Of a stretch of 64,000 nt of DNA, positions 18,185 through 50,000 are shown one piece after another. The notes beneath the pieces were generated by a model. It was not told the origin of the DNA, did not search any database, and saw only the letters and a list, made by a program, of their open reading frames with translations. Every line of letters begins with the position of its first letter. Position 1 is the first letter of the stretch. This DNA comes from a virus (taxonomy: Duplodnaviria; Caudoviricetes), in the IMG/VR virus record IMGVR_UViG_3300029305_003884, positions 114,043-178,042 of that record. One strand, written 5' to 3'. Both the position numbers and the translations under genes were made by a program.

Positions 18185-19294
18185 TTATAGGTCGGCCCAG
18201 GGGTCATCCCCTGCGTCCAGCGAGGATGTTTCGACGACATCTCCTTTGTGGGCATTAGCAAAGGCTGCCCTTTGGTTTGTTAACAGTTTTGCTCGTTTTT
18301 TCTTTTCCTTGCTGATAGGCTTGTCGAAGTCGGCTGCATCTCTGTCGGACATATCAGAACTTGGGATAAAGCTAACGAAGTCAGCGAGTGTTGTGTCTAC
18401 CGATTCCACTGTGGTGTCTGAGGAGAACCTGTCGACATCTGCTTTTGGCTTTGTGTCCTTGTCGGAAGGATTCTCAAGCATTTTTTCGGCGTCCATGCGT
18501 TCTTCAGGAGTAGCTTCATGGCTGTCATCATCGCTGTCATAGAAGCCTTTTTCGTATGTAGAGATGTCAGAAGTGACCGTTGCGTCGAACTGGTTCGCAA
18601 CGAAATTGTTAATATCTTTTGCTAACGAGAAGATTGACGATTCGTTACTAAGAGTGGCTACTCTGAGCTTATCGTGGAATGCAGCAGCAATATCTTTCAA
18701 TAGCTGAACTACATATGTACCTGAACCGATAACGCTAAGACATTTGTCCATGCGGTCAGTATTGTAAGAGTTCCTCCTCCTGCCGGCAAGCGCTTCGGCC
18801 TGCCTCATGTACTTGTCTGAGTCGAATGAATTGAACTTGCTGATTAGCCAGTCTATGAATTTGGCCATGTTGTCTATATCACTGGGTTTACATAGGTTTT
18901 TGTCAAGTAGCTTAGGTGCTACCTTGACGTAAGCGTCAGCCAGCGTTGTGCCTGCTGTCGATTCAGTGCGTTTTGGTTCGGAAATCTCATCCTCAATTTC
19001 GGCGATATCGTCCGCAGGGTCTGGAGTGGTTCGTTCGCTAAGGTTGTCAGCAAGCGTGCTTGCGTCGACACCGTTTGCATCGAAGTCGTCGTCGGTGGAT
19101 TCGTCATCATTATCAATGTTAAGGACGTTTTCGCTGTCGTCTTCGTAGTATGCTTCATCAGAGTCCAAGTCGTCATATAGACCGATAGCATTTTCAAGGC
19201 ATACCTTGAATAGTTTCGTCAGTGCTTCGAGCTCTGGTTTCTGAACCCCCATCTGTGCGACGGATTCGGTAAAAAGTCTGAGTCGGTTGGTCAT
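18185..19294 (-). CDS. Acidic hypothetical protein carrying the shared 28-aa N-terminal leader
   Basis: ATG 19294 with AGGA upstream and the late motif at 19321. Leader LFTESVAQMGVQKPELEALTKLFKVCLE. Confidence 0.75.
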   Translation of the reverse strand: MTNRLRLFTESVAQMGVQKPELEALTKLFKVCLENAIGLYDDLDSDEAYYEDDSENVLNIDNDDESTDDDFDANGVDASTLADNLSERTTPDPADDIAEIEDEISEPKRTESTAGTTLADAYVKVAPKLLDKNLCKPSDIDNMAKFIDWLISKFNSFDSDKYMRQAEALAGRRRNSYNTDRMDKCLSVIGSGTYVVQLLKDIAAAFHDKLRVATLSNESSIFSLAKDINNFVANQFDATVTSDISTYEKGFYDSDDDSHEATPEERMDAEKMLENPSDKDTKPKADVDRFSSDTTVESVDTTLADFVSFIPSSDMSDRDAADFDKPISKEKKKRAKLLTNQRAAFANAHKGDVVETSSLDAGDDPWADL

Positions 19295-19320
19295 GAACAA
19301 TCCTGTGTCATTTACTTAAT

Positions 19321-19368
19321 ATAGTTTATAAGGGGGTGGAACGGATTCCGTGCCACATTATAAACTAT
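19321..19368. promoter_or_regulatory. Back-to-back late-type promoters (- at 19321-19330, + at 19359-19368)
   Basis: Exact motifs with a 28-bp spacer, as at 3348-3395. Confidence 0.82.
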
Positions 19369-19392
19369 TGTTGTATTTCAGAGACTATCGAT

Positions 19393-22300: not shown

Positions 22301-24204
22301 ATAGCATATTTGGGGGAATGAACAATACTATCAACAACTCGTCCCACAATATGGTGCTGAACGGGTTTAATAACCAGTTGATGGGTGCAGTGTTTGCTAC
22401 GGTTTGCGGTAATGATAATTTACTGCAACTGGATTCTGATAATGCCCCAGTATGCAACACGCTGATGGTTGCTCGTCATAGCGTGGCTCGTGGATGTTTG
22501 ACCTCGCTAATTGCTACTGAAAATTCTGAAATTGATTCAACAAAGATATGCAGTGTATTGGGAAATAACATCAGAATCAATAGCGCTTCTGTATGTTGGT
22601 GTTCTCGTATCGCTGCTGATGGTTCAGAGTTTACCCGTGAAGTAAAATGTTCGGACGTGTTGGCGCATTTGGCACACCACATTCCTCAGCTATACATGAC
22701 TAGGGCGACGGTGTCAAATGTAGGTGTACCCAATGTAAAAGGCCTCGATGAAGGCACTGGAATACTGAATTGTAGTGACTTTATTGGATATAACGTACAG
22801 TTTTTTGCTAAACCGACCGAAGACCAGTCTGATATTAGCGATGATAGGACTCTATTCTGTAGTCGCATGGCGGGTCAGTCTTCTGGGTTGATTAAGGCAA
22901 AGGCTATTCTGTCTGATGTGTATACTCAGTTCGACGGGTCAGGTTGGAACAGTAGGTTTAAATACCGAACATTGGAATCAGTATCCATTTACGAGAGTAG
23001 CATTAAACTGTGCAATTCTACCATTGGAAGCAACTATATAGACAACCCAGTAGATTCTGGCAGAATTTCCTTCTGTGATATTTCTCTTTGTTCTAGCATA
23101 ATGCTGCTGACGACTGAGGGAGCATCTGGTACGACGAAAGATATCGCTTTCGGCGTAATGAAACTTGCAAATTCCTGCATTAAGCTGAGCGATTGTGCAT
23201 ATATCTATGATGTAGGTGATAATCATTGTCTGCGTGAATCAAACATCCGTTATGCTACATTGGTGGGTAAGACACTAACTCTGACATCTGGTACCTTCCA
23301 GAACATGCATCTGTATGGTTCATTGACTCTGTTCACATCTTTGGCAAACCACCTCATCTTGAGTGGATTGGATGGAACCAATGTAGGAAATGGATTCGCC
23401 GCAAGCAATTATATTTCTGAGTTTGGGTCTTTCATTGTGGCAAACGACCATGGATATCCGATGATTTGGTCATTGGGTGGCGTTGGTATGTACATGAACA
23501 AGATGATTCTCGGAAACTGTGGTGTAAGCGGTGCTTCTGAACCTCATATTGGTGATGTCCTTACTGTCGTAGGTGTTGAAGGTAATTTGGCGACAGTTGC
23601 CTGGATGCCGGGTGGCACGAACGGAAAGTTTGGAACAATCAATTTGGAAGTGACGTTCAAGTGTGCTAATACTGGATGGGCACAGGGTGCAGGCGGCGAA
23701 TATGCAATGAACCTGTGGGCTCTAAGAGACACCAGTAGGGCAGATTGCATTGTCCTAAATGGCGAGAATATTCCTAATAGTGGCAATGTGGTTGAGACCA
23801 TGAATGGACGCCTTGGTAATAGCGATATTAAATTCAAGGTTGAGAATGGCCTGTTGGTGCTTGAAAACACGGGTAGCGACACCTATACGATTTCGGGAAG
23901 TGCAGCTTGCGCCGAAGTATCTAGGACTAACGTCGGCGAACCGACGAGTTCATCCTATGGCTGGAATATGTGGGATACTGATGACTTTATACCTATGCCT
24001 CTTGGTCATTATTCCGCTGCATTGAATACGGATAGTAATGTCGGTGCCAACGGTACTTACGACGATATGCTTAGGTATCTCATTTTGGGCTTTAAGAAGA
24101 GCGATGATGCACAAGGTGCTGGAGAGCTATGCGGCGTGACATTGGCTGAGGACCAAGAGTTGGTATGCAAGTATAGCGTGAATATCAATTATCGGAAGTC
24201 GTAA
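19393..24204 (+). CDS. Long tail fibre / receptor-binding protein with FISUMP-like domain and Cys-rich beta-helical C-terminal half
   Basis: N-terminal 'QITNKGLELLA' and 'FKFNRIGIYA' resemble tail-collar fibre N-termini. Internal 'LYN..WRIPTLSDW..KIRSSANW..ISILCV'. N/S/I-rich repeats. Start placed at ATG 19393, downstream of the promoter. Confidence 0.7.
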   Translation: MAAKTQITNKGLELLASSSKATGQHWWIGWYALAFVPDELQEEDGEKLSPSMTKLTENGDIIYNIFQGDMNGDGYQTTKASSKFKSVNYDSNIKKNYRYVLDEDGKNNLVTFVDGTKGLKGAYVYPGVEVNTSRDNNGIGYTKSQIPLPAPLLYTGVKAAGEGWSINGMNIFLGSGNYSIDKFYPVEEVDGVAVPRVSTDFRNYEGYKNGLPKPESGNKYEDGLDEFNSDPSNPNKVDSDGWTPSVYTYTQNDETDMGEDYNQYCLEYWKILSISNFNKYCAPVNASSLLYDENTGCRNMAKATKYFPISDYSVTSTAKTADNEYATGIKLKVQLKLNGNAEDDAYFKDVEGDADNVASLIPSPTEEQQKLFNSQMVSFKFNRIGIYAVPMRQYGCSGDSAEMKAQYQIDTEAEPVLFAVCEWDSPVTLSDSGEGLSEFQSDIFVDLSAAVDDSSVIRESAVFYNLYEDDAIDWYKNQLVANAAMGEAIINMQIEMGYIRDQKNAKGCCPKQEEIKQNNKVSTGLRNLVDAEDYNSNSVRNRLAAEEGKAIDAVYSDTILHFGGFGVPHVNRANLPGIYARKTTVVHEQEEGQTPITENHYSAFFGESCYMKTPFEDAVFKDSDDNDITYHDMATTSYTEDEERATRIGKLWVRRDLYYEVYSFVKPMNPMVDTLTYDYPDDVDTNGLVNPTGTVVDTFGETLPGRGQNGTVIITKTSAGTKWKDKDATTSNPGLPPELTAAAVPELYAEIDRSLSDYETQRVYEVPYYQYTLNRDYSGYAVERTTSLRLPKVQLYNINQLSEIKQQLSSTKWRIPTLSDWKAIIAESTDEKMAKIRSSANWNQTGGDGGVFPLGGAMSTRSGKTLYYDMESPAIYLAIDGVTDQVVVMRENPETNKFGFEIISTPSAPNGSVNYISILCVADAVKVSDPITKYKLGYDSYALMEGSVSAGTHNFNASENSIITESAHYNSIFGGMNNTINNSSHNMVLNGFNNQLMGAVFATVCGNDNLLQLDSDNAPVCNTLMVARHSVARGCLTSLIATENSEIDSTKICSVLGNNIRINSASVCWCSRIAADGSEFTREVKCSDVLAHLAHHIPQLYMTRATVSNVGVPNVKGLDEGTGILNCSDFIGYNVQFFAKPTEDQSDISDDRTLFCSRMAGQSSGLIKAKAILSDVYTQFDGSGWNSRFKYRTLESVSIYESSIKLCNSTIGSNYIDNPVDSGRISFCDISLCSSIMLLTTEGASGTTKDIAFGVMKLANSCIKLSDCAYIYDVGDNHCLRESNIRYATLVGKTLTLTSGTFQNMHLYGSLTLFTSLANHLILSGLDGTNVGNGFAASNYISEFGSFIVANDHGYPMIWSLGGVGMYMNKMILGNCGVSGASEPHIGDVLTVVGVEGNLATVAWMPGGTNGKFGTINLEVTFKCANTGWAQGAGGEYAMNLWALRDTSRADCIVLNGENIPNSGNVVETMNGRLGNSDIKFKVENGLLVLENTGSDTYTISGSAACAEVSRTNVGEPTSSSYGWNMWDTDDFIPMPLGHYSAALNTDSNVGANGTYDDMLRYLILGFKKSDDAQGAGELCGVTLAEDQELVCKYSVNINYRKS

Positions 24205-24839
24205 TGAAGCTCTGCCAACTGAACCTGACAACGAAGTGCAACTTTTCCTGTCCAGAATGTCCGACAGGAGAGTGGCACAACTTTGTCGAAAAGCCTCAGT
24301 ATATTGTGAAGAATGCGGACTTGTTCCGTTTTCTTCGCAAACTGCCGCCTGATGTATGGGAAGTCGAACTGACGGGTGGAGAACCCTCCCTGTATGACGG
24401 TATAGATGAATTGGTCAACTGGCTTGAACTTAACGGTTATCACGGCGAGATAAAGACAAACGGTTCACGCAAGATTCCTCGTATGGGTTCAATGAAGATG
24501 ATATCGGCATGGCACAGATGGGACCAGAGGCCGATAGACTACGACATGATACTCATAGTCAAGAACCTGTTCGACCACGAGGCCGAGAAGATTCAGTATT
24601 GCGAGGACAACCACATCCCGTATAGGCTTACTGACCGTATTGGAGACCAGCACCCTCGGTACAGGCATGGCATCAAGGGCTACATTGGGGTAAACCCTGC
24701 TGGCTCAATCGTACCTTGCCCTAAGATGAGTGCGAATGACTCGATGCCTAGAATATCTGACAAAGAATACACATTGCCAAAGGGGTATATCTGCCCTTGG
24801 TGCAAGACGGGACAGGACTATGAGATATTTACAAAATGA
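24204..24839 (+). CDS. Radical SAM protein
   Basis: CxxxCxxC 'CNFSCPEC', 'LTGGEP', 'TNG', and C-terminal Cys 'VPCP..ICPWC'. TAATG overlap with the fibre gene. Confidence 0.9.
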   Translation: MKLCQLNLTTKCNFSCPECPTGEWHNFVEKPQYIVKNADLFRFLRKLPPDVWEVELTGGEPSLYDGIDELVNWLELNGYHGEIKTNGSRKIPRMGSMKMISAWHRWDQRPIDYDMILIVKNLFDHEAEKIQYCEDNHIPYRLTDRIGDQHPRYRHGIKGYIGVNPAGSIVPCPKMSANDSMPRISDKEYTLPKGYICPWCKTGQDYEIFTK

Positions 24840-24862
24840 AGCGGGTTATTTCCCGCTTTTTT
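24839..24862 (+). terminator. Rho-independent terminator
   Basis: AAGCGGG/CCCGCTT stem plus T run. Confidence 0.8.
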
Positions 24863-24884
24863 GATATCTTTTTTATCTCCATTA

Positions 24885-24894
24885 TATAAACTAT
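24885..24894 (+). promoter_or_regulatory. Late-type promoter TATAAACTAT
   Basis: Exact motif upstream of 24928. Confidence 0.8.
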
Positions 24895-24927
24895 ATGTGA
24901 AATTGAGTCCATTACAGGGATTTTAGT

Positions 24928-31244: not shown

Positions 31245-31254
31245 TATAAACTAT
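31245..31254 (+). promoter_or_regulatory. Late-type promoter TATAAACTAT
   Basis: Exact motif upstream of 31280. Confidence 0.8.
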
Positions 31255-31279: not shown

Positions 31280-33685
31280 ATGTCGATGCTTGATGCTGAT
31301 TTTGATTTTACTGATGAGGAATTGGAGGAGATGGAGAAGGCCGCCTCTGATGCAGAAGCTGCGGAAAAAGAGGCTGATGCCGAGAAAGAAAAAGCTGCCG
31401 CCGACTCATTTTTCTCATCACAGGAAGCAGATGTTTCTGAATCTGACTTGGATGCATCCTTGTCTGAAGATGAGGACGAAATGTTTAGTGGTGTAGAAGG
31501 CGAGGACTCTGATATCTCCTCTGTCGATGAGAACGAGGAGTTTTTAGCTGACTTGGGCCCGCTGGATGAAGATAAAGGTGGAAAAAGAACGAAAAGTATA
31601 TTCGATTTGGGAGGATTTCGGAAAAAAGGGCGCCCTGGCCCAAGCCGTTCTAGGAGGCGTGAGGAGGAAGTCTACGATGATGATAATGATGGTAGGCCTG
31701 AACCATCAGTCTACATACCGCTTGGCGAATCATTGAAGCAGGCCGCAGAGGACAATGATGTTGACTATGCTGACGTTTTCTCGTTCATCATGGCGATAGA
31801 CTCATCGGCAAACAAGACGATTTCTACCAAGTACGATTCTACTGTATACAGCGACGATTGTGACTATTTTGTACAGTTCCTATCAAAAGTATTTCAGGCC
31901 AATAGTCAGAGGACATTGAGTATCATCGTTTCGGAAGTCATATCTTACCTCAAAAGGAATGCGGGTATGACCTTTACGGCGATTGATATCATCATGTATT
32001 GCAACGAGCTGTATGCTCAGGTTGAAGACAAGGTCCAGGTATTCTCTTTTAACGCTATTGGATACACCAAGATGAGAGTCCTGGTGGAAAATGCGTTCAT
32101 TATTGAGTATTTGAATAACATCGGAATTTCTAAGGACCTGAAAGTCGGAAACAATGTAGACGATGCGGTTAATGGTGTCATCCAACTGGCAGTGGCGGTT
32201 GCCTATCACATGTACGAGAACATGCTTGGCGATTCCGTTGAAAAGTATAGTATGGCTTACAAGAGAATAGAAACCGATAAGCCAGAAATGCTCAATGTAA
32301 TCGAGGAAGGTGATTACGAGTCGTTCTATAAGATGTTGAGGACTTTTGGAGGTTCTGGGACTATTGGCATAGACATTCGTGATATCGACCTGAATGTGGA
32401 GTCATATTCTCCTGGCGAGGCCGCCGCTCTCTATGCGGCAGTAATAGCAAAAATGGACGAATTCGCCGCAAAGTATCACCGTACGTATGACAACGAGGAT
32501 GTCGAACGTGTAGTTGACAGCATCGTTAGTAGGGGTTACCGAGCTTCGCAGACGAATGCGATAGAGTATTATTGCGATGAGCTGTTCAACCCCAAGAAGG
32601 CCGTAAAGAAGAGCGACGACAAGGATACGGTAAGTGTTGACAATGGGATGAACATTGCGACGAAGGCTTATATTCCAGCGGGTTACGGCCTGAGTAAGTC
32701 TCACATCGAGATAAACAAGCCTTATACGGAAGTGTTCGGCATTCCCTTCATCAACATACGCCATCCGCTGTTCAAGACGATTGCGATGAGGTATAGCAAG
32801 AAGTATACCAATACCAAGGCCAAGAAATCTAATGGAAAACTAAGTGCCATGGACAAGGTGTTGGAGAAGCGCTTGCGTGACGTTGAGGTAAATGCGGATA
32901 AGGCCGAGCGTCAGCTGATTAAGGAAATCAAGAAGGGAAGCCTCATGTCTAAATTCTTGATAGGCGACACCAAAAAGGATACTCAGGTCGAGGGAGAAGG
33001 TTTGGGTCTAGTGTCTACCATCGAGAAGGGTCTCCGCAAGGTCACCTCGTTTGCATCAAATCCGAGACTCGTCAAGAACATATTGAAGCTCATCAAGATG
33101 GCCATGGACGGTGAGGAAACCCCTGTGTCAAGGAACACTCTTGTGGTTGCAACTAACAGGATGAATGCTTATGACAGGAACCCGCTTGTTTCTAACTACG
33201 AGAATGACCAGTATACTAATGTCAGGGTTGTCAACCCGACTAAGCCAGAGAAGAGTGCCGCTGTATCGAAGAAGTATTTGAAGCAGTTCTATGATATCGT
33301 AAATCCGTTGGAGAATGCTGACGAATATATTGCCTGTGGTGCGTTCTCGGCAAATCTGGTGAACGGATTTGAGGGAAGGGGTATGTTCAAGGCGCAGCTG
33401 AATACGGTCTCTGGCGGGGCTATTGACCCGAGCGCCGTGTCCGATGCTGCCATAACCCTGTTCCGTCAGGATATCTTGGCACACGGTGGATATCCGTACA
33501 CTTACGTGTTGACTGACCAGTTCACTGGCGAGAACAACCAGGTATACAAGATAACCCGTAACAACAATTTCTTCGGCGACCTTATAAGGCTCGATGTGGA
33601 CCTTGTTGCTATACATGTCAAGAAGGCGGGTATAGATGGAATTTTCATCATGGAGAACCATGATGCGGAAGTGCTGTTTAGCTAG
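31280..33685 (+). CDS. Hypothetical protein (801 aa) with very acidic N-terminus
   Basis: Long ORF; the first ~95 aa are D/E-rich, followed by an Arg-rich patch. Confidence 0.78.
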   Translation: MSMLDADFDFTDEELEEMEKAASDAEAAEKEADAEKEKAAADSFFSSQEADVSESDLDASLSEDEDEMFSGVEGEDSDISSVDENEEFLADLGPLDEDKGGKRTKSIFDLGGFRKKGRPGPSRSRRREEEVYDDDNDGRPEPSVYIPLGESLKQAAEDNDVDYADVFSFIMAIDSSANKTISTKYDSTVYSDDCDYFVQFLSKVFQANSQRTLSIIVSEVISYLKRNAGMTFTAIDIIMYCNELYAQVEDKVQVFSFNAIGYTKMRVLVENAFIIEYLNNIGISKDLKVGNNVDDAVNGVIQLAVAVAYHMYENMLGDSVEKYSMAYKRIETDKPEMLNVIEEGDYESFYKMLRTFGGSGTIGIDIRDIDLNVESYSPGEAAALYAAVIAKMDEFAAKYHRTYDNEDVERVVDSIVSRGYRASQTNAIEYYCDELFNPKKAVKKSDDKDTVSVDNGMNIATKAYIPAGYGLSKSHIEINKPYTEVFGIPFINIRHPLFKTIAMRYSKKYTNTKAKKSNGKLSAMDKVLEKRLRDVEVNADKAERQLIKEIKKGSLMSKFLIGDTKKDTQVEGEGLGLVSTIEKGLRKVTSFASNPRLVKNILKLIKMAMDGEETPVSRNTLVVATNRMNAYDRNPLVSNYENDQYTNVRVVNPTKPEKSAAVSKKYLKQFYDIVNPLENADEYIACGAFSANLVNGFEGRGMFKAQLNTVSGGAIDPSAVSDAAITLFRQDILAHGGYPYTYVLTDQFTGENNQVYKITRNNNFFGDLIRLDVDLVAIHVKKAGIDGIFIMENHDAEVLFS

Positions 33686-33694
33686 GTGGAATGT

Positions 33695-34426
33695 ATGAAC
33701 GAGAAGAAAATCTTTATGGAAGCCGTAGGCAATTTCGGTCTCACCGTACGACAGTACGAGAGCATTTCTCGGCTGTATGACGTGTGTTTCGAGGCGACGA
33801 TGAAGGACCTATCGGGACCCGTAGACAATCTCAGAAAGTACAGGAGCAAGGCACTCATGTTCCATTACAACGACCTGACGAGGAACCCGAAAACTGGACA
33901 TGCTGTTGTTCACTTCGTCGTTCCGTCGGCAAGCAATGAGAAGAATTACGACGTCTACATCGAGTTCATCCCGAAAGATGGAACTTTGTTCAGCATGGCC
34001 CAGGGCCCGATGACTCCAGCAAAGAAGATTGGTTTGCTGCGTTCGTGCGATGTGAAGGTGTTCTGCACATGTCCTGACTTCAACTGGTCTGGCATGAAGT
34101 ATAACCTAAAGCATATTTACGACAGCTACCTTTCTGGATACGAGTCCATTGAAGGTGTTCCGCCTGGTGGTGAGGATATTCCTCCCAATGTTAAAGACCC
34201 TCATCACAAGAATAGGGTGTGCAAGCACTTGCTTGCGGCGTTTAATGCAGTTATGACGAACTGGATGACCATTATCAAGGCAGCCAAGAACTATCGTATA
34301 ACAGATGAGCCGCCAGTGAACGAGGAACCTGTCGAGGAAACCCCGATAGAACAGGCTCCGGCAGAAACACCAGCGGCTACTCCCGAAGTAGACGAGAATA
34401 TCTCGCCTGACGAAAACGGAATTTAG
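33695..34426 (+). CDS. SWIM zinc-finger protein carrying the shared N-terminal leader
   Basis: 'FCTCPDF...VCKHLLA' matches the SWIM CxC...CxH pattern. Leader IFMEAVGNFGLTVRQYESISRLYDVCFE. Confidence 0.75.
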   Translation: MNEKKIFMEAVGNFGLTVRQYESISRLYDVCFEATMKDLSGPVDNLRKYRSKALMFHYNDLTRNPKTGHAVVHFVVPSASNEKNYDVYIEFIPKDGTLFSMAQGPMTPAKKIGLLRSCDVKVFCTCPDFNWSGMKYNLKHIYDSYLSGYESIEGVPPGGEDIPPNVKDPHHKNRVCKHLLAAFNAVMTNWMTIIKAAKNYRITDEPPVNEEPVEETPIEQAPAETPAATPEVDENISPDENGI

Positions 34427-34488
34427 TTTTAAAAACGTATTTTAGTGTATGGGCCAGCATTGAGCGATGGTGGCCTGACGCTCTCTAT

Positions 34489-34498
34489 TATAAACTAT
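34489..34498 (+). promoter_or_regulatory. Late-type promoter TATAAACTAT
   Basis: Exact motif upstream of the head cassette. Confidence 0.8.
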
Positions 34499-34531
34499 AT
34501 ACGAATGTAATGATTATTGTGGTTTTCGGTG

Positions 34532-34711
34532 ATGTCAATACCAGGACTTAAAGACAATGATGCACGCTCGCTCATAAGCTATCTGCTTAATGGCGACTCC
34601 ACAAACGTGGAGAAGTTGGTCAATGCCTATATGGAGTCCGCATATAGCATCTGCACGAAAGAGAAGACCAAGATAGTCATGGAAAGTATTAACTCACCCA
34701 AGAAGGCGTGA
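34532..34711 (+). CDS. Small prohead core protein (T4 gp67-like)
   Basis: Directly upstream of the protease. 'LISYLLNGDSTNVEKLVNAYMES..KEK' follows the helical pattern I recall for gp67. Confidence 0.5.
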   Translation: MSIPGLKDNDARSLISYLLNGDSTNVEKLVNAYMESAYSICTKEKTKIVMESINSPKKA

Positions 34712-35460
34712 GTAGGGGAAGCGTCATGGGAAAGATGCGTGAAATCATTGGCGTACCGAATTTCAACGACAGTAAAGTGACTGTTGCGGAACGCACCGAC
34801 TTGTATGGAAATAAGGTTAAAAGGCTTATCCTGGAAGGCACCGCTATCGTGTGTGACGAACCAGGTATTAACGGTCGTTCATATCCTCGTGCAATCATCG
34901 CCAGGGAAGTTGAAAAGCTGAACAGGACGAAGATACCTCTTGGACGACTCGCCGCTGAATTGAACCACCCCCGTGTCGACATGGAAGGAAATCCGAAGGA
35001 TTACCCGATTTTCGAGATGAACCTTTGGAAGACTTGTGCCGTCATCGAGGAACTCCGAATGGACGGAAAGAATCTGTACTGTCGAATGGTTGTTGCCGAG
35101 GATACCGACGCTGGTCGAAACCTTGCAGGCCTCATCAAGGCTGGCTACACTCCTGGCTACTCCCTGCGTGGTGCGGGTGATACCATCGAGCTTCCCACTG
35201 GCTATGAAGAAATCGACCCTGATTATGTATTGATTACTGTTGACGTTGTTGGAAACCCGAGCTTCGACAACAAGGCTCTCATCACGAGTCATTTCGAAAG
35301 CGACGCTGGAAAGAAGAAGGCACACAAGATTCTTACCGAGAGCATCAATCGCTATGGAAAGGAAGTTGCCTTGAATTACAGCCTGCGTAATAAGAATTTC
35401 CTAACTGACCGTTATCATTGCTACAACAGGGAAGCTCTACTCAACAATTTGCGTGGATAA
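34708..35460 (+). CDS. Prohead core protein protease (T4 gp21-like)
   Basis: 'NGRSYP', 'ELNHP' (catalytic His), 'GYSLRGAG' (catalytic Ser), 'VDVVGNPS'. The start may be ATG 34726. Confidence 0.9.
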   Translation: MSRGSVMGKMREIIGVPNFNDSKVTVAERTDLYGNKVKRLILEGTAIVCDEPGINGRSYPRAIIAREVEKLNRTKIPLGRLAAELNHPRVDMEGNPKDYPIFEMNLWKTCAVIEELRMDGKNLYCRMVVAEDTDAGRNLAGLIKAGYTPGYSLRGAGDTIELPTGYEEIDPDYVLITVDVVGNPSFDNKALITSHFESDAGKKKAHKILTESINRYGKEVALNYSLRNKNFLTDRYHCYNREALLNNLRG

Positions 35461-35471
35461 GGTGACAAACT

Positions 35472-36422
35472 ATGGAACTGTCAAACATTTTAACAGAAGA
35501 AGAACTTGGTAGCATCGCCCCTTCGATTGTTGCGAAGATTGAAGCGAGCTGCAACAAGGCGATAGCCGACTACGAGGCGAAGGGCGACCGGCAGTTCAAG
35601 TCCTTGGTCGAGGCCGTGTCTGGACAATTTGATGCGTTGGTAAAGCCAGCTGTTCAGAAGAAGGTGGACAGCATGGGCGATAACGCTGTCAAGGGTAAGC
35701 TTTTCGAGGCTTTGCAGAAGATTGTGAATGTTCTTGAAGAATGCCAGATAGAGACCACGCAGGAAAGGGAAGCGAAGAAGGCTGTTGCCCAGTTGAAGAC
35801 GGAACTTCAGGAGAAGGTTGTCGAATACAAGCGTGCCATGAAGCAGCTTATGTACGCCAAGATTGCCGACAAGGTTCTCCGTGAGACCAACGGCTATCGT
35901 CCAGACCTCCAACAGAAGGCGGTCGAATACTTTACCAACCCTTCTCTGGACATTTCCCTAGACGACCTTAAACGTGAAGACATTTTCAACTACATCAATG
36001 GTATCGAAGACGACAAGATTTCGAGCAACGAGTTCAGCGGAATCGGTGAAATCAAGGCTCCTAACCAAGTCGATATGAATGAATTGAACGAGATAGCCGA
36101 CAGCCTGATGCATGACGACATCATGGACAACGGACTGACGAACTATCGCAAGAACAACCTCGCCGTTAACGAAGTTAGGTATCCAGCTGGTGGAAACGCT
36201 GCTGTCGGCAAAAGGATGCGTCCTGCGCCCAAACTGGCCTCCGTAGGCTTCGGCAGCAAGTCTGCTGCATTTGAAGCCCTTGGGCAAGGACTATCCAAGA
36301 ACAAGGTGTATAACAGCCCCGATGTTACCAAGGAAATGCTCGCCCAGCCGAGTTCGCTGGACAACGACGTTTCCGATGATGATGTCAGGCAAGCCCTGAG
36401 CGCAATGAACGTGTTCTCGTAA
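35472..36422 (+). CDS. Prohead scaffold/core protein (gp22-like by position)
   Basis: Immediately after the protease; coiled-coil-like, E/K/A-rich; begins 'NILTEEE'. Confidence 0.6.
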   Translation: MELSNILTEEELGSIAPSIVAKIEASCNKAIADYEAKGDRQFKSLVEAVSGQFDALVKPAVQKKVDSMGDNAVKGKLFEALQKIVNVLEECQIETTQEREAKKAVAQLKTELQEKVVEYKRAMKQLMYAKIADKVLRETNGYRPDLQQKAVEYFTNPSLDISLDDLKREDIFNYINGIEDDKISSNEFSGIGEIKAPNQVDMNELNEIADSLMHDDIMDNGLTNYRKNNLAVNEVRYPAGGNAAVGKRMRPAPKLASVGFGSKSAAFEALGQGLSKNKVYNSPDVTKEMLAQPSSLDNDVSDDDVRQALSAMNVFS

Positions 36423-36445
36423 CCAGTTTCCACTTTACACCAAAC

Positions 36446-36479
36446 GAATGGGGGTCCTATCTCACGGGGACCCCCATTC
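36446..36479. terminator. Strong intergenic hairpin (terminator or processing site)
   Basis: 12-bp perfect stem GAATGGGGGTCC/GGACCCCCATTC; no clear U tract. Confidence 0.6.
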
Positions 36480-36501
36480 AAATATTGTATTTTATATAAC
36501 G

Positions 36502-38841
36502 ATGAATCCTAAGCACGACGAACTCTGGAAACTCCCGCAAGACACGCTCGCTCTTGCATCGGAATATGACATATCTCCCGTTGTCAACGACGAGGAGATT
36601 GCTGGCATGGACTTCTTGACGGAGGAATCCGATGGCAAGGTAAACTACGACGAAATAAAGTACGAGATTCCGACGGATACGAAACAGATACTCCAAGCTA
36701 ATGTGGAATACGGACTTTACGAGCTCTCCGAAGCCGACCGTGTATTGAAGGATAATGTCAAGTACATAAGTCTGAAATATATATGCAGGAACTTGAACCG
36801 TACGGTGGAATGGGTAATCGACAGGGATATCCTGCACAACCTATTCTACATTCTTGACAGCAACGGGGATAGGCTTTACCGTGAACCCGAGGTGGTGGAA
36901 CGGTGTAAGTTTCTGGCCATCGAGTTTAGAAGGAAGGACCTTCCGTTCTCCACGTTCGGTAGGATGGAAGCCGCTGAATATCTCGGGGTATCACAGGGAA
37001 AGTTCGAGTCTATCGTGAAGGATATTCCGTTCAAGGAACAACTTTCTACCGACGGCGAAAAGCACGTAGTGTACTACAAGAAGGACCTTGATGTTTACTA
37101 CCGTCATCACAATTTCTTGGACATTGTCGCAAAGGCCAATGCAACCATTTCTTTCGAGGATGTCGTAGATATAATCGGAAACGTGTCGAAATCTAACGAG
37201 TTCTTCGCCGTGTACAAGCCGAGAAAGATGAAGACGATGGATGGCTATGTGACAGACAGGTACTCGTCCGATGACGTAAGGAAATTCATCGATTCGCACA
37301 AAGGCGACACATCTATCTACAACCCGTTGAAGGATGTCATTTCTAGCGACATGGCTAGGATATACATTGGGGCTACCAAGAAGGAATGGTTGCGTGCCAG
37401 GTACGAGAAGAAGCTGATACGCCCAGTCAGGAAGGCAAACGGTTCAAAGCTTAGTAGACCTGGAAAGGGATTCGCTATGTTCCTCGTGGATGACCTCGAC
37501 AGGTACATGTATGAAAGGGATTGCGGCGAACTGTATGGACTCGGAAAGGAGTTCATAACGAGAAAGCATATCAAGAACAGATACGGTGTCAATGACAAGT
37601 GGATTGACACTTACGCAAAGGACAGCGACAAGGTTCATGTAAAACTGGCTTCGGGAAACGTGATGACATGGGCGACCTATCATTCCAGCAAGGTGAAGGA
37701 AGTGATGGTGGGTATCAACTATGTAGATATCGAGGCTTTAATCAAGGGTGGAAACTTCATCGACATAACCCGTGAATTTATCAGGAAGAAGTTGAAGATT
37801 GACAAGGAGGAGAACGCAAAGCGCTACAAGAAGGGCAAGTTCTCCATCCTGATGATGCACAAGAAGTTTGTCGAGATGAGGAAGAAGAGTCCGTATCAGT
37901 ACCACGAGGTAACCGACGACGATGTCACCCTCGCTCTCGATACGAAGATTAACGAACCCCGATTGGTCATGGCCGAAAAGAAACGTCTCCTTAAAAAGAT
38001 TAAGCAGAAGGAAATCGAGCATGATAACAAGATGAGGGAGATACTCGGTCTGACACCAGTCAAGTGTCCTGGAGTCACCAGCAACGATGTCGTCAAGTCG
38101 TTGACGTCGCCGCAGGTGTTCCGATGCATATACAAGAGGGGCGAGGTTGACCTTTACAAGCGGTTTGATGGCGGATACAAGACGTATGATTATGTCTACC
38201 ACCCGAACCATTACTTCACTAGGAAGCACAGTGCCGACAGGGTTTCCCTGAGTGTCAAGGCGTTGTTCTCGGGCATGTTCAAGATGGAGGAGGAAACATT
38301 CAGTTGTCCCCCAGATTGGTTTGTATATATGGACAGCTCGACCTGCATATCGGATATCTTCTGGAAGGAAAAACTCGATAGGCTCCCGAGCGATGTCGGC
38401 ATGGTTGGTACTTACGGTTGGAAGACGGTGCCTGCCTCGTTCAACTGGCACGAGAGCCATGATTCTTACGGATGCTACGAGGGAATGTCGATTAAGGACA
38501 ACAGCACGAGGAAAATCGTTGGTGAACTCGGGTTCGGTGAACTTACGGACGTGGCAATTCTTGGTGGGCCTGTATTCGCAATAAGGGCGAGCATGATACA
38601 AGACATCCTCCGTGTCCGTATATTGAACGGGTATGTCATAGGTGACGACCATATTGCGGCTGAGTTGTCTATGTTCTGCCACGAGTGCCGCCAGAGGGTG
38701 TGTGTAATTGACACGAATGTCGTAACCTGTATAGATTACATGGATTACGTGGGCGGAGAGGACTGGGATGAGGACCAGATTAACTTTGTTTTGCGTTGGC
38801 AGCACCGTCTGTCAAAGATGAGGGAAGCCCCGACATTATAA
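36502..38841 (+). CDS. Tandem excisionase-type HTH repeats fused to a GT-A (glycosyltransferase-like) domain
   Basis: 'MEAAEYLGVSQGKF..YYKKDLD' and similar repeats; C-terminal 'WFVYMD..VGMVGTYG..VAILGGPVFAIR..ELSM..RVCVID'. Confidence 0.55.
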   Translation: MNPKHDELWKLPQDTLALASEYDISPVVNDEEIAGMDFLTEESDGKVNYDEIKYEIPTDTKQILQANVEYGLYELSEADRVLKDNVKYISLKYICRNLNRTVEWVIDRDILHNLFYILDSNGDRLYREPEVVERCKFLAIEFRRKDLPFSTFGRMEAAEYLGVSQGKFESIVKDIPFKEQLSTDGEKHVVYYKKDLDVYYRHHNFLDIVAKANATISFEDVVDIIGNVSKSNEFFAVYKPRKMKTMDGYVTDRYSSDDVRKFIDSHKGDTSIYNPLKDVISSDMARIYIGATKKEWLRARYEKKLIRPVRKANGSKLSRPGKGFAMFLVDDLDRYMYERDCGELYGLGKEFITRKHIKNRYGVNDKWIDTYAKDSDKVHVKLASGNVMTWATYHSSKVKEVMVGINYVDIEALIKGGNFIDITREFIRKKLKIDKEENAKRYKKGKFSILMMHKKFVEMRKKSPYQYHEVTDDDVTLALDTKINEPRLVMAEKKRLLKKIKQKEIEHDNKMREILGLTPVKCPGVTSNDVVKSLTSPQVFRCIYKRGEVDLYKRFDGGYKTYDYVYHPNHYFTRKHSADRVSLSVKALFSGMFKMEEETFSCPPDWFVYMDSSTCISDIFWKEKLDRLPSDVGMVGTYGWKTVPASFNWHESHDSYGCYEGMSIKDNSTRKIVGELGFGELTDVAILGGPVFAIRASMIQDILRVRILNGYVIGDDHIAAELSMFCHECRQRVCVIDTNVVTCIDYMDYVGGEDWDEDQINFVLRWQHRLSKMREAPTL

Positions 38842-38846
38842 ACTAT
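38837..38846 (+). promoter_or_regulatory. Late-type promoter overlapping the upstream stop codon
   Basis: TATAAACTAT contains the TAA stop at 38839-38841. Confidence 0.75.
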
Positions 38847-38861
38847 GAATGATTAGACTAT

Positions 38862-40457
38862 ATGTCGGAGTTCATAGGTATGAATAACAACAGCACGTTT
38901 GCGTATGTCCACACGGAAAGCGGACCAGTAAAACCTGCAAAGGCGGTACCCATCGAGACGATGAGGAACATTGTCGCTTCCATCCAGGGCAAACATGTCC
39001 GTGGAGAAAAAGGAACTAACTGGGCTGACCTCGCCAAGAAGGTGAACAAGGATTGCAACCCGCACGGATATACAACGATACAGACAATTTTGAATAAGGT
39101 GTTGACCGAGGCTGCCGCCCAGTCTGTCGGAAAGTCTGTGTTCCGACTTGACCTTGGAAACGTGGTGTGTGACTCTGCTCATGCAAAGTTCAAGATGAAC
39201 AGGCGAAACCATTCTGTCGTAGTGGATATGCTCTATCCTAACGACAATGGCAATATCACTATTCGATACAATGTCGATGACGTGGCTGCAAAGATGTTCG
39301 AGCTTTCCCTTGATTCGGAACACTATATCAACGGTTTCGGTATGACTATCATTAAGTGCTGTGACGATGCCATCAAGGAAGCCGAGGAAATGACCGAGGA
39401 AGAAGACATCTACTCGACCGAAAATGGATACCAGCCGATAATGTCAGCAGATATGCGTGGTCTTCTCAGCATTGCCAACTCCATAATGGAATCTCAGGTT
39501 GCTGTTGATTCTAATGGATACGGTGAAGCTGACTTTAACGCTAATCCAGCCCCCGATGCCACCATGGGCGGCATGGGCGGCATGGGAAGCGGAACCCCTG
39601 GCGGTGAAGGTGGTCAAGGTGGTGGCGCAGCTTCTCTTGGTGGAAATTTGGAAAAGCCAGAGAACGAAGTGAATTTTGTCGACTTCTGCCTGGGAAACCT
39701 CGATACCTCGCAGCCGCTTGATAAGGCACAGCATGGTTCTTTTGCTAGGCTGACAGACATCCTTGCTGATAGGATGGCAATCGAATTGAAAAAGACTCAG
39801 AAGGGCGAAACGCTTACAGGAAAACAGATTGCTAACGGAACGCAGGGTATAAAGTCGGCGCTGAACGCTAATCAAAAGCTTACTCAATTCCAGGAATACT
39901 ATCCGCAGTTCAAGGGAATGGTTTATGAAAAAGAAGCCCAAGCCCTTGCGAACTTCCTTGAGAGAACCGATGTGGACAACGCAATGGACTTCGAGGCGTG
40001 GCTATACAGCGATAAGACGATGCAGGAACTGGCAAAGCGTAAGGGTGTAGGACTGCAGACAGGAACCAAAGGCGATAACCAGGATGTCGCTCCCCTTCCA
40101 AGTGACGGAACGGAGGCCGCTGCAAACAATACTGCTATGGATGCTGGTATGGGCACTGGCATGGGTGGTATGGATGCTGGCATGGGCACTGGCATTGGCG
40201 GTATGGATTCTGGCATGGGCGCTGGCACGGATACTGGCATGGGCTTTGGCATGGGAACGGGAGTTGATAATACGGAAACAGCCCCCGCTGGCGATGGATT
40301 TGGCGGTCCTGACATAAACGATATTGGCCAATTGGACCAGATTAGTGAGAATACTAGCGAGGAACTGCCTAACTTAGGTGGTGAAGCAAATCAAACCGAC
40401 CAAGTTGACTTAGGTCTCGACACTCAACCCACGGACGAGAATAATCCGCCTGCATAA
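38862..40457 (+). CDS. Hypothetical protein with Gly/Met-rich repeats and acidic tail
   Basis: 531 aa; MGGMGGMG and (MDAGMGTGMGG)n segments. Confidence 0.75.
   Translation: MSEFIGMNNNSTFAYVHTESGPVKPAKAVPIETMRNIVASIQGKHVRGEKGTNWADLAKKVNKDCNPHGYTTIQTILNKVLTEAAAQSVGKSVFRLDLGNVVCDSAHAKFKMNRRNHSVVVDMLYPNDNGNITIRYNVDDVAAKMFELSLDSEHYINGFGMTIIKCCDDAIKEAEEMTEEEDIYSTENGYQPIMSADMRGLLSIANSIMESQVAVDSNGYGEADFNANPAPDATMGGMGGMGSGTPGGEGGQGGGAASLGGNLEKPENEVNFVDFCLGNLDTSQPLDKAQHGSFARLTDILADRMAIELKKTQKGETLTGKQIANGTQGIKSALNANQKLTQFQEYYPQFKGMVYEKEAQALANFLERTDVDNAMDFEAWLYSDKTMQELAKRKGVGLQTGTKGDNQDVAPLPSDGTEAAANNTAMDAGMGTGMGGMDAGMGTGIGGMDSGMGAGTDTGMGFGMGTGVDNTETAPAGDGFGGPDINDIGQLDQISENTSEELPNLGGEANQTDQVDLGLDTQPTDENNPPA
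40137..40260 (+). repeat. Degenerate 33-bp tandem repeat encoding MDAGMGTGMGG
   Basis: ATGGATGCTGG(T/C)ATGGGCACTGGCAT.GG.GGT twice, followed by decayed copies. Confidence 0.8.
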
Positions 40458-42520: not shown

Positions 42521-42530
42521 TATAAACTAT
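42521..42530 (+). promoter_or_regulatory. Late-type promoter TATAAACTAT
   Basis: Exact motif upstream of the collagen gene. Confidence 0.82.
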
Positions 42531-42554
42531 TGGTAAAGTTTTGCTGGTTACGTC

Positions 42555-43742
<1,188 letters not shown>

Positions 43743-43772
43743 TCCTGAACGTAGTGTATCAACAGGAGTTGG

Positions 43773-45482: not shown

Positions 45483-46942
45483 TGGCAGTTTACGCATTTA
45501 ACAAGAAAACGAACGTCTTGGAGTTCAAATGTTCTAACAAGAATGTTCTGGATATCATACTATCGCAGAAGAAAAAGGATATCCGTGATTATGACATCTT
45601 ACAGGAGTTTGGTATGAGGTATATATCAACCATTACCCATGTCGATGGGGTATGTATTTACAACAACAGGGAATACTGGTCGAAAACCGCTGTACAGAAT
45701 CCGTTGACCCCAGAAAACTATTCTGAACACGAGGTGTTAGACTTTATTGGAAGGGCGGTTCCTTACGATAGGTATGTTGATGAATTGAACACGAATCTTA
45801 ACCGTATCAGTGCGATTGATGGAACCATCGGTGAAGTCATATACAACATAGATATTGGCAATGAGATGATTGCGTTGTTCAAGGAAGAATGCCGTCTGAC
45901 GAACTTCAGGGGAATTACTCCAATTGAGATTGCGGCAAAGCTGGCCCAGGCGTACACGCTTGTGTTGACGGGCTCCTTCCGTGAGGCGAAGACCGTATTT
46001 CAGGCGCTCGACACCGACCCGTTCCTTACCGAGGAACGTAAGCAGAAGTATATTGACATGCTTGATGCGGCTGATGCTATCGAATATGCGTCTGGCGACG
46101 ACCTGATATTTACAACGGAAGAGAATACAGAGCCAGACCCAGAACTGGTCGAGTATGTCAGGGTCTATCTGATGGACCAGTCTAGCGACATGAGTAAGGA
46201 ACACACGTTCTACTATGCGGCGATGAAACAGCCAGACGAAACGAAGAAACCGAGATTCCAGGATGGCGACAAACTCATCTATGTAATTCGCCATGCTGAA
46301 CGTGACAGCGACAGCAGTTCAACAACCGACATCAACGATACTGGTGTAGCTCGTGCAAACGGCATCGGAAAGATACTGGCTTATGGAAACTCTCCGTCTA
46401 GCTCGGAAAGTTCTATAACTATCACGATTGAACCGAACGATGCCCATTACTTTGCAAATGACTTGGTAAGATGTAAACATACGGCACAGTGCATTGCGAG
46501 TGGACGTGGTGACACTGACAGTGCTGCATCGGACTACTCTGGAATTACCGAGGAAGCCGAACTTCTCTACGGATACCGTTATCTGCAGAGTCATCCAAGC
46601 TCAGGCACAACGGACTTGTTGAAGACATATTGTCATACCCCAGAAGACCTTACATCCGAACAGTTGGGTTACATCGGGGTTTCAACGGTGGAAGAGGCAC
46701 GGGCCAAGCTCGTGTCCGACACCAACCGTTTCATCAACGAGATAATCGCCAAGGCTGACAAGACGCTCAACTTCTTCGTCACTAGCGACTATTTCGTCGG
46801 ATGTATGCAGGCGGGTGTTACCAACTATGGTTATGACCAGTCTGGTAACAATCCATGGGTCAACTGGTGCTCTGGCGTGTGTATAGTTGCCCATACGGAC
46901 GGTACATACGACGCATTTGCGGTGAAGTGTAACAAGAAATAA
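45482..46942 (+). CDS. Phage protein with C-terminal histidine-phosphatase-fold domain
   Basis: 'YVIRHAER', 'TGVARA' and 'RCKHTA' match the His-phosphatase superfamily. TAATG coupling to the upstream gene. Confidence 0.7.
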   Translation: MAVYAFNKKTNVLEFKCSNKNVLDIILSQKKKDIRDYDILQEFGMRYISTITHVDGVCIYNNREYWSKTAVQNPLTPENYSEHEVLDFIGRAVPYDRYVDELNTNLNRISAIDGTIGEVIYNIDIGNEMIALFKEECRLTNFRGITPIEIAAKLAQAYTLVLTGSFREAKTVFQALDTDPFLTEERKQKYIDMLDAADAIEYASGDDLIFTTEENTEPDPELVEYVRVYLMDQSSDMSKEHTFYYAAMKQPDETKKPRFQDGDKLIYVIRHAERDSDSSSTTDINDTGVARANGIGKILAYGNSPSSSESSITITIEPNDAHYFANDLVRCKHTAQCIASGRGDTDSAASDYSGITEEAELLYGYRYLQSHPSSGTTDLLKTYCHTPEDLTSEQLGYIGVSTVEEARAKLVSDTNRFINEIIAKADKTLNFFVTSDYFVGCMQAGVTNYGYDQSGNNPWVNWCSGVCIVAHTDGTYDAFAVKCNKK

Positions 46943-46955
46943 ATGTGAAAACACA

Positions 46956-46983
46956 GCCGTTCAGTCAACTGGACGGCATTTTT
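46956..46983 (+). terminator. Rho-independent terminator
   Basis: GCCGTTCAG/CTGGACGGC stem followed by ATTTTT. Confidence 0.78.
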
Positions 46984-46996
46984 GTATCCGCAAGTG

Positions 46997-47006
46997 TATA
47001 AACTAT
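46997..47006 (+). promoter_or_regulatory. Late-type promoter TATAAACTAT
   Basis: Exact motif upstream of 47036. Confidence 0.8.
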
Positions 47007-47035
47007 AAGTGAAAATTAACCGATAATGGGTTACC

Positions 47036-50000
47036 ATGTTTAGCAAGAAAGCGGTTTTTGAATCTTATCTCGAACAACTCGGCCTTAACAAGACGGCCTT
47101 TGAAGCGGTAAAGAGCATCAACGGTGTCCTGTTTGAAGGCATCGATGACTTGCTTGATGATATGGATGAGAATATTGAGGTGTCCTCAGTTCCCGAGGCT
47201 GTTCCTGAGGTAGAGAAAGTTGAAGAGGAACCTGCTCAGAAGAAAGCGGAATATACACCCGACGAGTTGGCATCTAGGATGAATATCCCGTTTAATGCGG
47301 CCTGGAGACTTGCTATTTCCTGGGCCCACACCGAGCCGAGGTTTGACTTTTTCTGGGATGAGTCTGGATACCCCTTGACGGCGTTCATGATTCCGTCTGG
47401 CGACGGGAAGAATGTGTATTTCTCTCCAGAGACGGTGATATACGAAATAAGTACTGATTCGGAAGACGGCGTTCCTAAGTATGTATACCAGACGGCGACA
47501 AACCCAGTCAGGATGAGCGAGGATATCTACAACAGGATAGTGAGCTACTATGGAGAACATGGTCGTGGCGATACAGGCGACCTTAGTGATATCCCCTTTG
47601 TTGATATTAAGCGTTTGGCTCTTGGCAATGCCCTTCATCAAGCGGGCGAGGACGCTCCTAACCTTGGCGTTCAATGCACCGTTCACCTCGACCCTGAAGC
47701 CATTATGCTTTCGAACGACGCATACAAAATAGATGAGAAAGGTGGTATTTTCGCAGATACAGAAAAGCTGAGGTCCCTTGAAAAGGAATATCACATGCAT
47801 GTTGAAAGCATGCAGATTGTGTTGTTGAAGGAATGGAGTGATGCCAACGACAAGTATTACGTTGACGGAACTACTGGTCTTATCTATGATGTCACCCGTG
47901 ATACGAGGATGATGGGTAAGAACGACACTCTGGCTCCTCTTAACGCCAAGCCGACCCCAGATAAGAAAAGGAAACAGTCAGCAACACTGCGTCTTGGTAC
48001 GAGGCTTATCGACTGGGCTAAGACCCAGGACATGTTTAGGCTGTTGTTGAAGCCTAATGCCGCTGGTGTTCCCAAGAATGTTTACACGAATACGATATAC
48101 CAGGTACCAAACGATGGTAATATCGAAGGTATTTCGGGAACCTCTCCTTATGTTTACATGGATGATGACAATTACGCAAGTTATGTCAACGCTAACCCAG
48201 GATTCGACCAGAGCCAGGTAAAGAAATATGGCGTCGATGCATTGAACAACCTTGTTAAGACGGAATACGAGAGACGAAGCACGTCAGACACGTCCGCATA
48301 CAATGAGTATGGATACGACTCCAACGGATGGGTCAATAACATCGAATGCGAAGTCGCTAGTGAAGATGCCAGGATGTATAAGTTGAAGGACTCCGTCATA
48401 AAGGCAATTAAACGTGCTTATGGCAGCGAGCTCGAAGGAATAAACAATTATGTCGCTGGTAAGAACATCATCACCGTCGGCGGTAAGATGGATTTGGATG
48501 GAAACGTAGTAGGCGGTGTTGATTGCCACCCGCTAGTTTACTTGGGACGTAGCCAAGGTGGATATTTGGCTCCTCGTCTTGTCGCAGTGTTTGATGAAAC
48601 TTGCTGTAAGCCAGGTGAACCTCTGTCAAAGATTGTAGGCGAGAGCGGCCTTCGTAACGGAACGCCGACCATCTTGGGATTTGCTACAATCCTGAATGGC
48701 TGTAACCTATCAAAGAAAGGAGATTTTGTAATCAACGACTGCTTTTTGGAGAATGTTGATATCTCTGGAAGTACGGGTTTTGTTAAAATCGGTTCTAGGA
48801 CAACTGCCCCGAATACGGCTCGCACGGTTAATGCTCCTGTGAGGACCGTAGTAAAGAACACCATCATATCTGTTGGAAACCATGGCGCCGATATGACGCT
48901 TCCCAATAACCAGATTTACGGGGAAATGTCTAAAGGTATGCGTGGAGTAACCATCGCCAACTCAGTTGTTGAGGATTCTATCATTGAGAATGGTTATGCA
49001 GAAATCATAGCTTGTCACCTCACTAACTTGAATATGAGCAACGATGGCGAAAAACGCCTGAAAGGCTGGAATAGCGAAGATGCGAGCAATGTTAAGTTCA
49101 AGGGTGACAACCTGATTAGTGTATACGGCGATGCTCGGTATGAAGCGGGCTACATAAAGAGTGTGGTTCCTGGTGCAAAAAGACAGAAGAAGTTTGAATC
49201 TGGAGATGTCACTACTAGGCTTACCGGTAATGTCACTTTGGATTCTAGTATGGGTACGGTCGTATGTTGTGGTTCTACGTTGAACAACGTGATTGCCAAC
49301 GGTCCGTGCAGCATCCGTTCTTGTACTCTTAACGACACGACTATTGGTGCTAACGCCGAAGCTGGTGGAAAATTTATGCAGACCCAGCTGAACGGTGTCC
49401 ATTCGACACCGTCTACTGAGACTGGTGGATACACCATTATCGACCACGGTCGTTACAAACCGACAATCTTCGGTAACGGAAAGAAGGACCAGAATCCTGA
49501 AACCATCCTGTTGTCGGGAAAGGTGTACGTCGAAGGTGGCGCACAGGTATTCAAGTCCGAGATATCCAGTCCTGCTGGTTCGGACGATGATGTCGTTGTA
49601 CGTGCAAACATGGTGTTGAATGGTTGCTCCCCATATACGCTTAACAGGAAGGATTCTGGTACGATAGCCAAGAGTCTCAACGACGACGCTATCTTGAGAG
49701 GTGACTGCACCGACGCTATCGAGGTTTCCAGAAGGTTGCACATGGGCTCCACTGTATACGGCGGTGCTTCCAGGAAGTATACTCCTATTGAAAAATATGA
49801 GATGTTCAAGAACGGCGATATGACATCGAAGGACTTGACATTGTATGAAGCGGAATCTATTGTAGAGGACTTCTTGGCAATGAATACGAAATCTGTTCTT
49901 GTGGACAAGAGCGTATTCATGGATATTACCGACGATGGTATCGTTCCGAACGAACGTTTGAAGATGACCATATGGGACCCGATTGGAGGTTTCTTTGTTG

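Follow-up and report, generated by a model that had tools for sequence, protein, structure and literature searches.

A portable helical-hairpin tag on unrelated proteins of an uncultured giant phage as a probable capsid-targeting propeptide

The 64,000-nucleotide stretch of DNA analyzed here (the window) covers bases 114043-178042 of a 178,042-bp IMG/VR virus record, IMGVR_UViG_3300029305_003884, which has a CheckV completeness of 42% and comes from an uncultured, T4-like giant phage with relatives of about 420 kb. Three unrelated proteins encoded in the window begin with the same short leader; this observation, made in the initial annotation, is real and was understated there. The leader belongs to a family of N-terminal tags. 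These are probably propeptides that target proteins to the capsid: they would correspond to the capsid targeting sequence (CTS) of phage T4 in a larger, folded form and be removed after a glutamate. By analogy with T4 (PMC9026906, PMC5694885), we infer that the tagged proteins enter the head, are cleaved after this Glu, and are ejected as cargo.

The three leaders in the window head open reading frames that start with ATG at 19294 (-), 33695 (+), and 47036 (+), and they occupy 19193-19294, 33695-33793, and 47036-47137, exactly as first annotated. Their 28-residue core begins at residues 7, 6, and 7, respectively, and aligns without gaps, with F2, G10, E17, V25, and E28 identical in all three. 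The first leader, running from the Met through the core to VCLE↓N (the arrow marks the boundary after Glu), scores 39-40 bits against the hidden Markov model (HMM) of the family and starts a 369-residue protein; the body of this protein (18185-19192, -) opens with 30 strongly acidic residues, 12 of them Asp or Glu. The second leader ends in VCFE↓A and starts a 243-residue protein, the body of which (33794-34426, +) carries a CxC...CxH pattern. The third ends in VLFE↓G and starts a 1377-residue protein, in which an acidic linker after the tag is followed by a large body (47138-51169, +). The bodies are unrelated, as had been claimed, with no BLASTP pair at E<0.01 among the 13 tagged bodies of the contig (best E 0.044).

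Pfam and PHROG searches returned no family match for any of them, and ESM Atlas searches found viral hypothetical clusters only, with SWIM present in 10% of one cluster. The SWIM label first given to the 243-residue protein is supported only by its cysteine-histidine pattern and this weak ESM Atlas lead. An AlphaFold model of the full protein, computed with eight orthologs, has a pLDDT of 48 and is too poor for use.

To determine the extent of the family, an HMM built on the three window leaders was used to scan the 178-kb contig in all of its 2,037 stop-to-stop frames and then iterated for two rounds. Ranked next after the leaders themselves was a series of other genes that match over the full length of the model, each directly at its start. 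After iteration, 12 genes of the contig score 34-44 bits and one weak candidate scores 9.7, with nothing else close; of the 12 firm members, nine map outside the window, as does the weak candidate. With the family model, 19 copies are found in a 419-kb relative and 22 in a 422-kb relative, both complete and with terminal repeats, and 14 in a 66%-complete relative with a 72% identical protease. A census of 1.84 billion representative public proteins with the family profile returned 131 clusters at E<=0.001, of which four are repeat-protein false positives, leaving about 127; the best E-values reach 1e-10. At the nucleotide level, a megablast search of the protease region against GenBank phages gave no match.

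A Met stands 2-10 residues before the core in all 12 firm members of the contig and in all 22 members of the 422-kb relative, while 103 of the 128 public matches (>80%) lie at an annotated N-terminus and three more are start-codon miscalls. A wider HMM scan had been expected to bring strictly N-terminal matches on unrelated bodies. It did bring many more members on unrelated bodies, but the restriction to N-termini is not strict, as a few copies are internal or double. Among the seemingly internal copies, the majority have a Met of their own.

Conservation of the leaders is seen at the protein rather than the DNA level, since third codon positions are 33% identical compared with 49% for first and second positions; the same codon is used in 44% of identical residues. 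The tag is also at least as conserved as the body that it precedes in nine of 10 ortholog pairs between this genome and the 422-kb relative, with 79% against 46% identity as an example. For the 369-residue protein the leader is 71% identical and the body 36%, and for the 1377-residue protein the values are 71% and 54%. The cargo genes turn over quickly, and the tag persists.

The tag consists of the 28-residue core and measures 30-36 residues from the Met. AlphaFold prediction from a 31-sequence family alignment places one helix at residues 3-14 and a second at 18-36 across a three-residue turn, with a mean pLDDT of 90.8, a confident prediction that the tag folds as a helical hairpin. All sequences of this alignment have Phe at core position 2. 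The end of helix 2, numbered from the predicted cut and compared across 140 members, carries Ala, Val, or Ile at P4; Cys (100/140), Leu (22/140), or Ile (12/140) at P3; Leu, Phe, Met, or Tyr at P2; Glu at P1 (128/140, 91%); and Ala, Ser, or Gly at P1' (114/140, 81%). The terminal Glu, invariant in the three window leaders, is hence canonical in 91% of the family and not in every member. Most members continue past the Glu with acidic or low-complexity linkers. By its residue pattern, with Glu before the predicted cut, hydrophobic residues preceding it and a small residue following, the end of the tag fits a gp21-type site. The P3 Cys, two residues before the Glu (19205-19207, -, and 33782-33784, +, in the window), is conserved unusually strongly for a residue of a presumed cleavage motif. 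A Foldseek search of the hairpin against the PDB gave generic helical matches only, the best at E 1.6.

By BLAST, the bodies of the 128 public members, 23-1,366 residues long, form 39 groups that are unrelated to one another. Outside the window, Pfam and PHROGs assign tagged members as an Amidase_2 peptidoglycan amidase, an SLT lytic transglycosylase, a peptidoglycan-binding protein, and a NUDIX hydrolase. The NUDIX and amidase cargos have leaderless paralogs in the 422-kb relative, which marks the tag as an add-on module. The description of the leader as longer, helical, and portable is borne out by the 28-residue core, the hairpin with its pLDDT of 91, at least 39 unrelated bodies, and these leaderless paralogs.

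The protease that would cut the tag is encoded in the window at 34726-35460 (+). The earlier statement that a gp21 homolog is encoded here holds: the protein matches Peptidase_S77 at 51.8 bits (cut-off 27) and PHROG 207 at 1.9e-31, and it aligns to the T4 gp21 structure 5JBL with an E-value of 1.3e-7. It has a His in ELNHP and a Ser in GYSLRG, at positions where the crystallized 5JBL protein has Ala; we take these two to be the catalytic residues of a gp21-type protease. A Glu-ending motif and an S77 protease in the same genome are compatible with T4-type cleavage. The following gene (35472-36422, +) encodes a helical protein that is conserved in all relatives and contains conserved h-x-h-E sites (KIE↓A, LVE↓A, LFE↓A, VLE↓E, and AFE↓A). 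Synteny (order 21-22), position, and composition, rather than a family model, make it correspond to T4 gp22, and it is referred to here as scaffold-like. The idea that the tag mimics a segment of this scaffold is unsupported, with an hhalign probability of 0.3% between the leader family and the scaffold family.

Tagged genes are found next to head genes at two places. The gene of the tagged 243-residue protein lies directly upstream of the protease gene, is adjacent to it in all close relatives, and occupies the spot that presumably belongs in T4 to genes 67 and 68, which encode core proteins. A second one is flanked by the portal and capsid genes, which are recognized as Portal_T4 (229 bits) and Gp23 (217 bits) about 60 kb upstream on the contig, outside the window. 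The T4-type head genes are split in this genome, with the protease and scaffold-like genes at 31280-40457 of the window and the portal and capsid genes at G000:C1:84140-88200. The protease and scaffold-like operon region (31280-40457) also holds genes for proteins of 801, 797, and 531 residues. Neither Pfam nor PHROG matches the 801-residue protein, PHROG searches gave no meaningful match for the other two, and PDB sequence searches of all three found none.

The tagged gene between the portal and capsid genes has 200 codons (G000:C1:85970-86572, +, outside the window; locus L006:271-873) and contains an in-frame TGA within the tag, at the column that holds the conserved Gly in the three window leaders. 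The two halves of the tag flank this stop in the same frame. The body of the gene was sought in three relatives and is absent from them. Decay of a cargo gene, a sequencing error, or a read-through site could each account for the interruption.

The placement of the three leaders in late-promoter units stands at the level of the motif only. The genes starting at 19294 and 47036 have a TATAAACTAT box 30-33 nt upstream, and such a box also precedes the 801-residue gene that heads the operon containing 33695. The individual TATAAAC boxes are at 19324-19330 (-), late-promoter-like and 30 nt upstream of the ATG at 19294; at 46997-47003 (+), 33 nt upstream of the ATG at 47036; and at 31245-31251 (+), heading the operon of the 801-residue gene, the tagged 243-residue gene, the protease gene, and the scaffold-like gene. 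A TATAAAC(TAT) box is present 15-60 nt upstream of 33 of 156 genes and of 10 of the 13 tagged genes; it is shared with structural genes, and its other bearers include a baseplate-wedge gene, the small gene that immediately precedes the portal gene, and the operon that starts with the 801-residue gene. The box resembles the T4 late promoter, and the tagged genes would accordingly be expressed late.

One family of about 19 public members departs from the usual layout in that a conserved N-domain of about 55 residues, sometimes joined by extra domains, precedes the tag. These nested-start proteins (at least 19 clusters) consist of the N-domain (MQPLYEYVCH..KGHRNSKGE..), optional inserts that are zinc ribbon, HExxH-like, or P-loop-like, and then the tag and a body that varies, with EF as the last residues at the C-terminus. 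The N-domain has no Pfam match. One copy is encoded in a relative at G002:C1:359684-361492 (-), and the public members are P0005-P0090. When the copy of the relative is read as DNA, its linker G-Y-K-L-L-G is GGT TAT AAA CTA TTG GGT, which is the late-promoter box. The conserved linker YKLLGE of the family is the in-frame translation of the box TATAAACTATTGG, and an ATG and the tag follow about 30 nt further on. Because the box lies inside the upstream frame and is followed by an ATG and the tag, the arrangement suggests a nested late gene within a longer reading frame, with the tag at the N-terminus of a predicted short product.

The closest known counterpart of the tag is the CTS of T4. In 1996, Mullaney and Black reportedly described the CTS that is carried by IPI, IPII, and IPIII, which are internal proteins. 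In T4, the internal proteins as well as Alt carry N-terminal propeptides of 10-19 residues that have affinity for the prohead core and are removed by gp21 after Glu, and the tag of IPIII, MKTYQEFIAE, carries foreign proteins into the T4 head (PMC9026906, PMC8442874, PMC3012670). The CTS is a propeptide common to otherwise unrelated internal proteins (PMC3012670, PMC9026906), and the S77-type proteases that have been studied all cut after Glu (PMC5694885). In the same way, the tag is an N-terminal, putative propeptide on unrelated proteins of a phage with gp20, gp21, a gp22-like protein, and gp23; its Glu end fits the gp21-type rule, it is a predicted late gene product, and its cargo set varies between related phages. 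Since the tag fits the logic of T4 in every feature visible in the sequence, it is read as an enlarged, folded variant of the CTS. It differs in that the T4 CTS is a short peptide of 10-19 residues on a handful of proteins, whereas the tag has a 28-residue core with a predicted two-helix hairpin and is found on about 20 proteins per genome. Peptidoglycan hydrolases, a NUDIX protein, and a 1377-residue protein are among its cargos, and the tag is sometimes internal or double.

The proposed mechanism treats the tag as a portable, autonomously folding helical-hairpin propeptide. Late in infection, the tag would dock its cargo onto the prohead core, most likely through the gp22-like scaffold or another core component, and the shell would assemble around the docked proteins. 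The gp21-type S77 protease would then cut at [A/V/I]-[C/L/I]-[L/F/M/Y]-E↓A/S/G, at the end of helix 2, and free the cargo inside the head. The amidase, SLT, peptidoglycan-binding, and NUDIX proteins, along with many others, would leave with the DNA at the next infection.

Several findings weigh against a capsid-targeting propeptide. In length, the tag exceeds any T4 CTS two- to threefold; besides the hhalign probability of 0.3% with the scaffold, no similarity to the T4 CTS (MKTYQEFIAE) was detected. Inspection by eye likewise reveals no evident homology with MKTYQEFIAE, although ten residues are too short for statistics; both have a hydrophobic or aromatic residue and then an acidic residue near position 7-10, with the Phe of the tag varying in position from 4 to 10. 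The tag model has no match in relatives that have a 55-60% identical protease and an about 25% identical scaffold. The Glu is absent from its canonical position in 12 of 140 members, two of which have a Glu four residues earlier, and the predicted cleavage site falls within a predicted helix, which would need to unwind. Three proteins (P0088, P0118, and P0110) have a truly internal tag with no nearby Met. Among them, P0110, a 479-residue protein from a 32-kb viral contig, carries one tag at its N-terminus and another, the one without a nearby Met, at residues 308-343, and is possibly a two-cargo polyprotein. Furthermore, the peptidoglycan hydrolases of myoviruses are usually parts of the tail and not head cargo.

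The same features have to be compared with what other roles of the tag would predict. If the tag were never cut, the hairpins might bundle together or with the scaffold into a permanent, phiKZ-like inner core in which the Glu is structural. The confidently predicted fold, as opposed to a linear motif, is in keeping with such an assembly module, as is the large internal mass that more than 20 tagged proteins per genome would amount to. The P3 Cys, present in 100 of 140 members, points the same way, since a cleavage site by itself does not account for it. However, Glu (91%) followed by Ala, Ser, or Gly (81%) stands exactly at the module boundary, with a flexible acidic linker next, and this boundary pattern is the signature of S77 protease sites (PMC5694885), so that an uncut module is unlikely. 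We regard as improbable an inhibitory or chaperone-binding prodomain that would keep enzymes such as the amidase, SLT, and NUDIX proteins inactive, or hold them for a common partner, and would not serve head targeting. In its favor, the cargos include several hydrolases that might damage the cell in which they are made, and leaderless paralogs are known, but the same hairpin precedes 39 unrelated bodies of 23-1,366 residues that are mostly not recognizable enzymes. Inhibition of them all by one domain of 30 residues is implausible, and the flexible linkers speak against intramolecular inhibition.

Three of the cargos bind or cut peptidoglycan, and in T4-like phages such activities usually reside on the tail, which would suit a tag that sorts proteins to the tail or baseplate, the cell envelope, or another structure built by the phage. 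The chances of this are small: the tag is amphipathic, unlike a hydrophobic signal peptide; its Glu-ending motif suits a protease that acts inside proheads; and tagged genes lie in the protease-scaffold operon and between the portal and capsid genes. The shared leader might also reflect chance, a remnant of paralogy, or an element of the DNA or RNA that late genes have in common at their 5' ends; the promoter box that the genes share and its similar spacing to the ATG could be cited in favor. This reading is highly improbable and effectively refuted by the contig scan, the codon-position test, and the public census, given that the conservation is in the protein (33% identity at third positions versus 49%), the E-values reach 1e-10 against 1.84 billion proteins, and the bodies show no similarity.

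Modules of comparable design are known from other phages and capsids. The C-terminal helix-turn-helix coat-binding domain of the P22 scaffolding protein is a helical hairpin of about 30 residues, and this domain and the cargo-loading peptides of encapsulins are terminal modules that dock proteins inside an HK97-fold shell during assembly. In contrast to the N-terminal tag with its predicted cleavage, these modules sit at the C-terminus, undergo no proteolytic removal, and bind the shell protein. A T4-type prohead protease that cuts after Glu is found in the giant phages phiKZ, 201phi2-1, and SPN3US, where many proteins inside the head are stripped of N-terminal propeptides presumed to direct them to the prohead (PMC5694885, PMC7411985). 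Many head proteins of the phiKZ group are processed after Glu and have long individual propeptides (PMC5694885); the paralogs gp53 and gp54 of phages of this type have an identical 15-residue N-terminus (PMC5694885, PMC7411985). The phiKZ and SPN3US propeptides are mostly longer than 100 residues and protein-specific, with an A/S/G-x-E motif (PMC5694885, PMC7411985), whereas the tag is short, conserved, and reused on dozens of bodies, with hydrophobic residues at P2-P4 and Cys, Leu, or Ile instead of Ala, Ser, or Gly at P3. The tag thus falls outside the phiKZ/SPN3US type of propeptide.

It is conceivable, though doubtful, that the tag goes beyond a variant of the CTS and represents a new device: an autonomous folded docking domain for a single site of the prohead core in a clade of ~420-kb phages, which would load more than 20 different proteins, cell-wall enzymes among them, and even polyprotein-like or nested units with an internal tag. 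The tag would then diverge together with the scaffold, and distant relatives would use their own, unrecognizable versions. The choice of proteins packed beside the DNA in giant phages is poorly understood. In this uncultured clade of 420-kb phages, the whole predicted cargo set is marked by one recognizable module with a confidently predicted fold, so that sequence alone yields a list of cargos: about 20 proteins in each genome and, overall, 39 or more families of bodies. If the reading as a capsid-targeting propeptide is true, an amidase, a lytic transglycosylase, and a NUDIX hydrolase are delivered along with the DNA. The tag would also be a tractable docking domain; the T4 tag, of only ten residues, has to our knowledge no defined partner. 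In addition, the tag could serve as a second, orthogonal tag to package foreign proteins into capsids.

A more distant relative, the 253-kb record G004 with an about 59% identical protease, has no match to the tag HMM. When another shared leader was sought de novo in this genome, jackhmmer found only three close paralogs; clustering by BLAST-short lacks the sensitivity for shared leaders, in the home genome as well. In the 253-kb relative, h-x-h-E[GASDN] sites at residues 25-42 are enriched 1.9-fold (p=0.004), and its ortholog of the 243-residue protein (around C1:76114-77202, -) has an N-terminal extension of only about 15 residues that ends in TFLE↓G and is about as long as the T4 CTS. The enrichment and this short extension are suggestive only. 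Many N-termini of G004 have h-x-h-E and then a small residue at residues 25-40 with no match to the tag model.

Two further genes of the window encode proteins with informative matches. A 395-residue collagen-like repeat protein (42555-43742, +) matches PHROG tail-fiber families with E-values down to 7.6e-66. A 211-residue protein (24204-24839, +) is radical-SAM or QueE-like (PHROG E 5e-8) and sits between very large, structural-looking genes of 1603 and 2075 residues.

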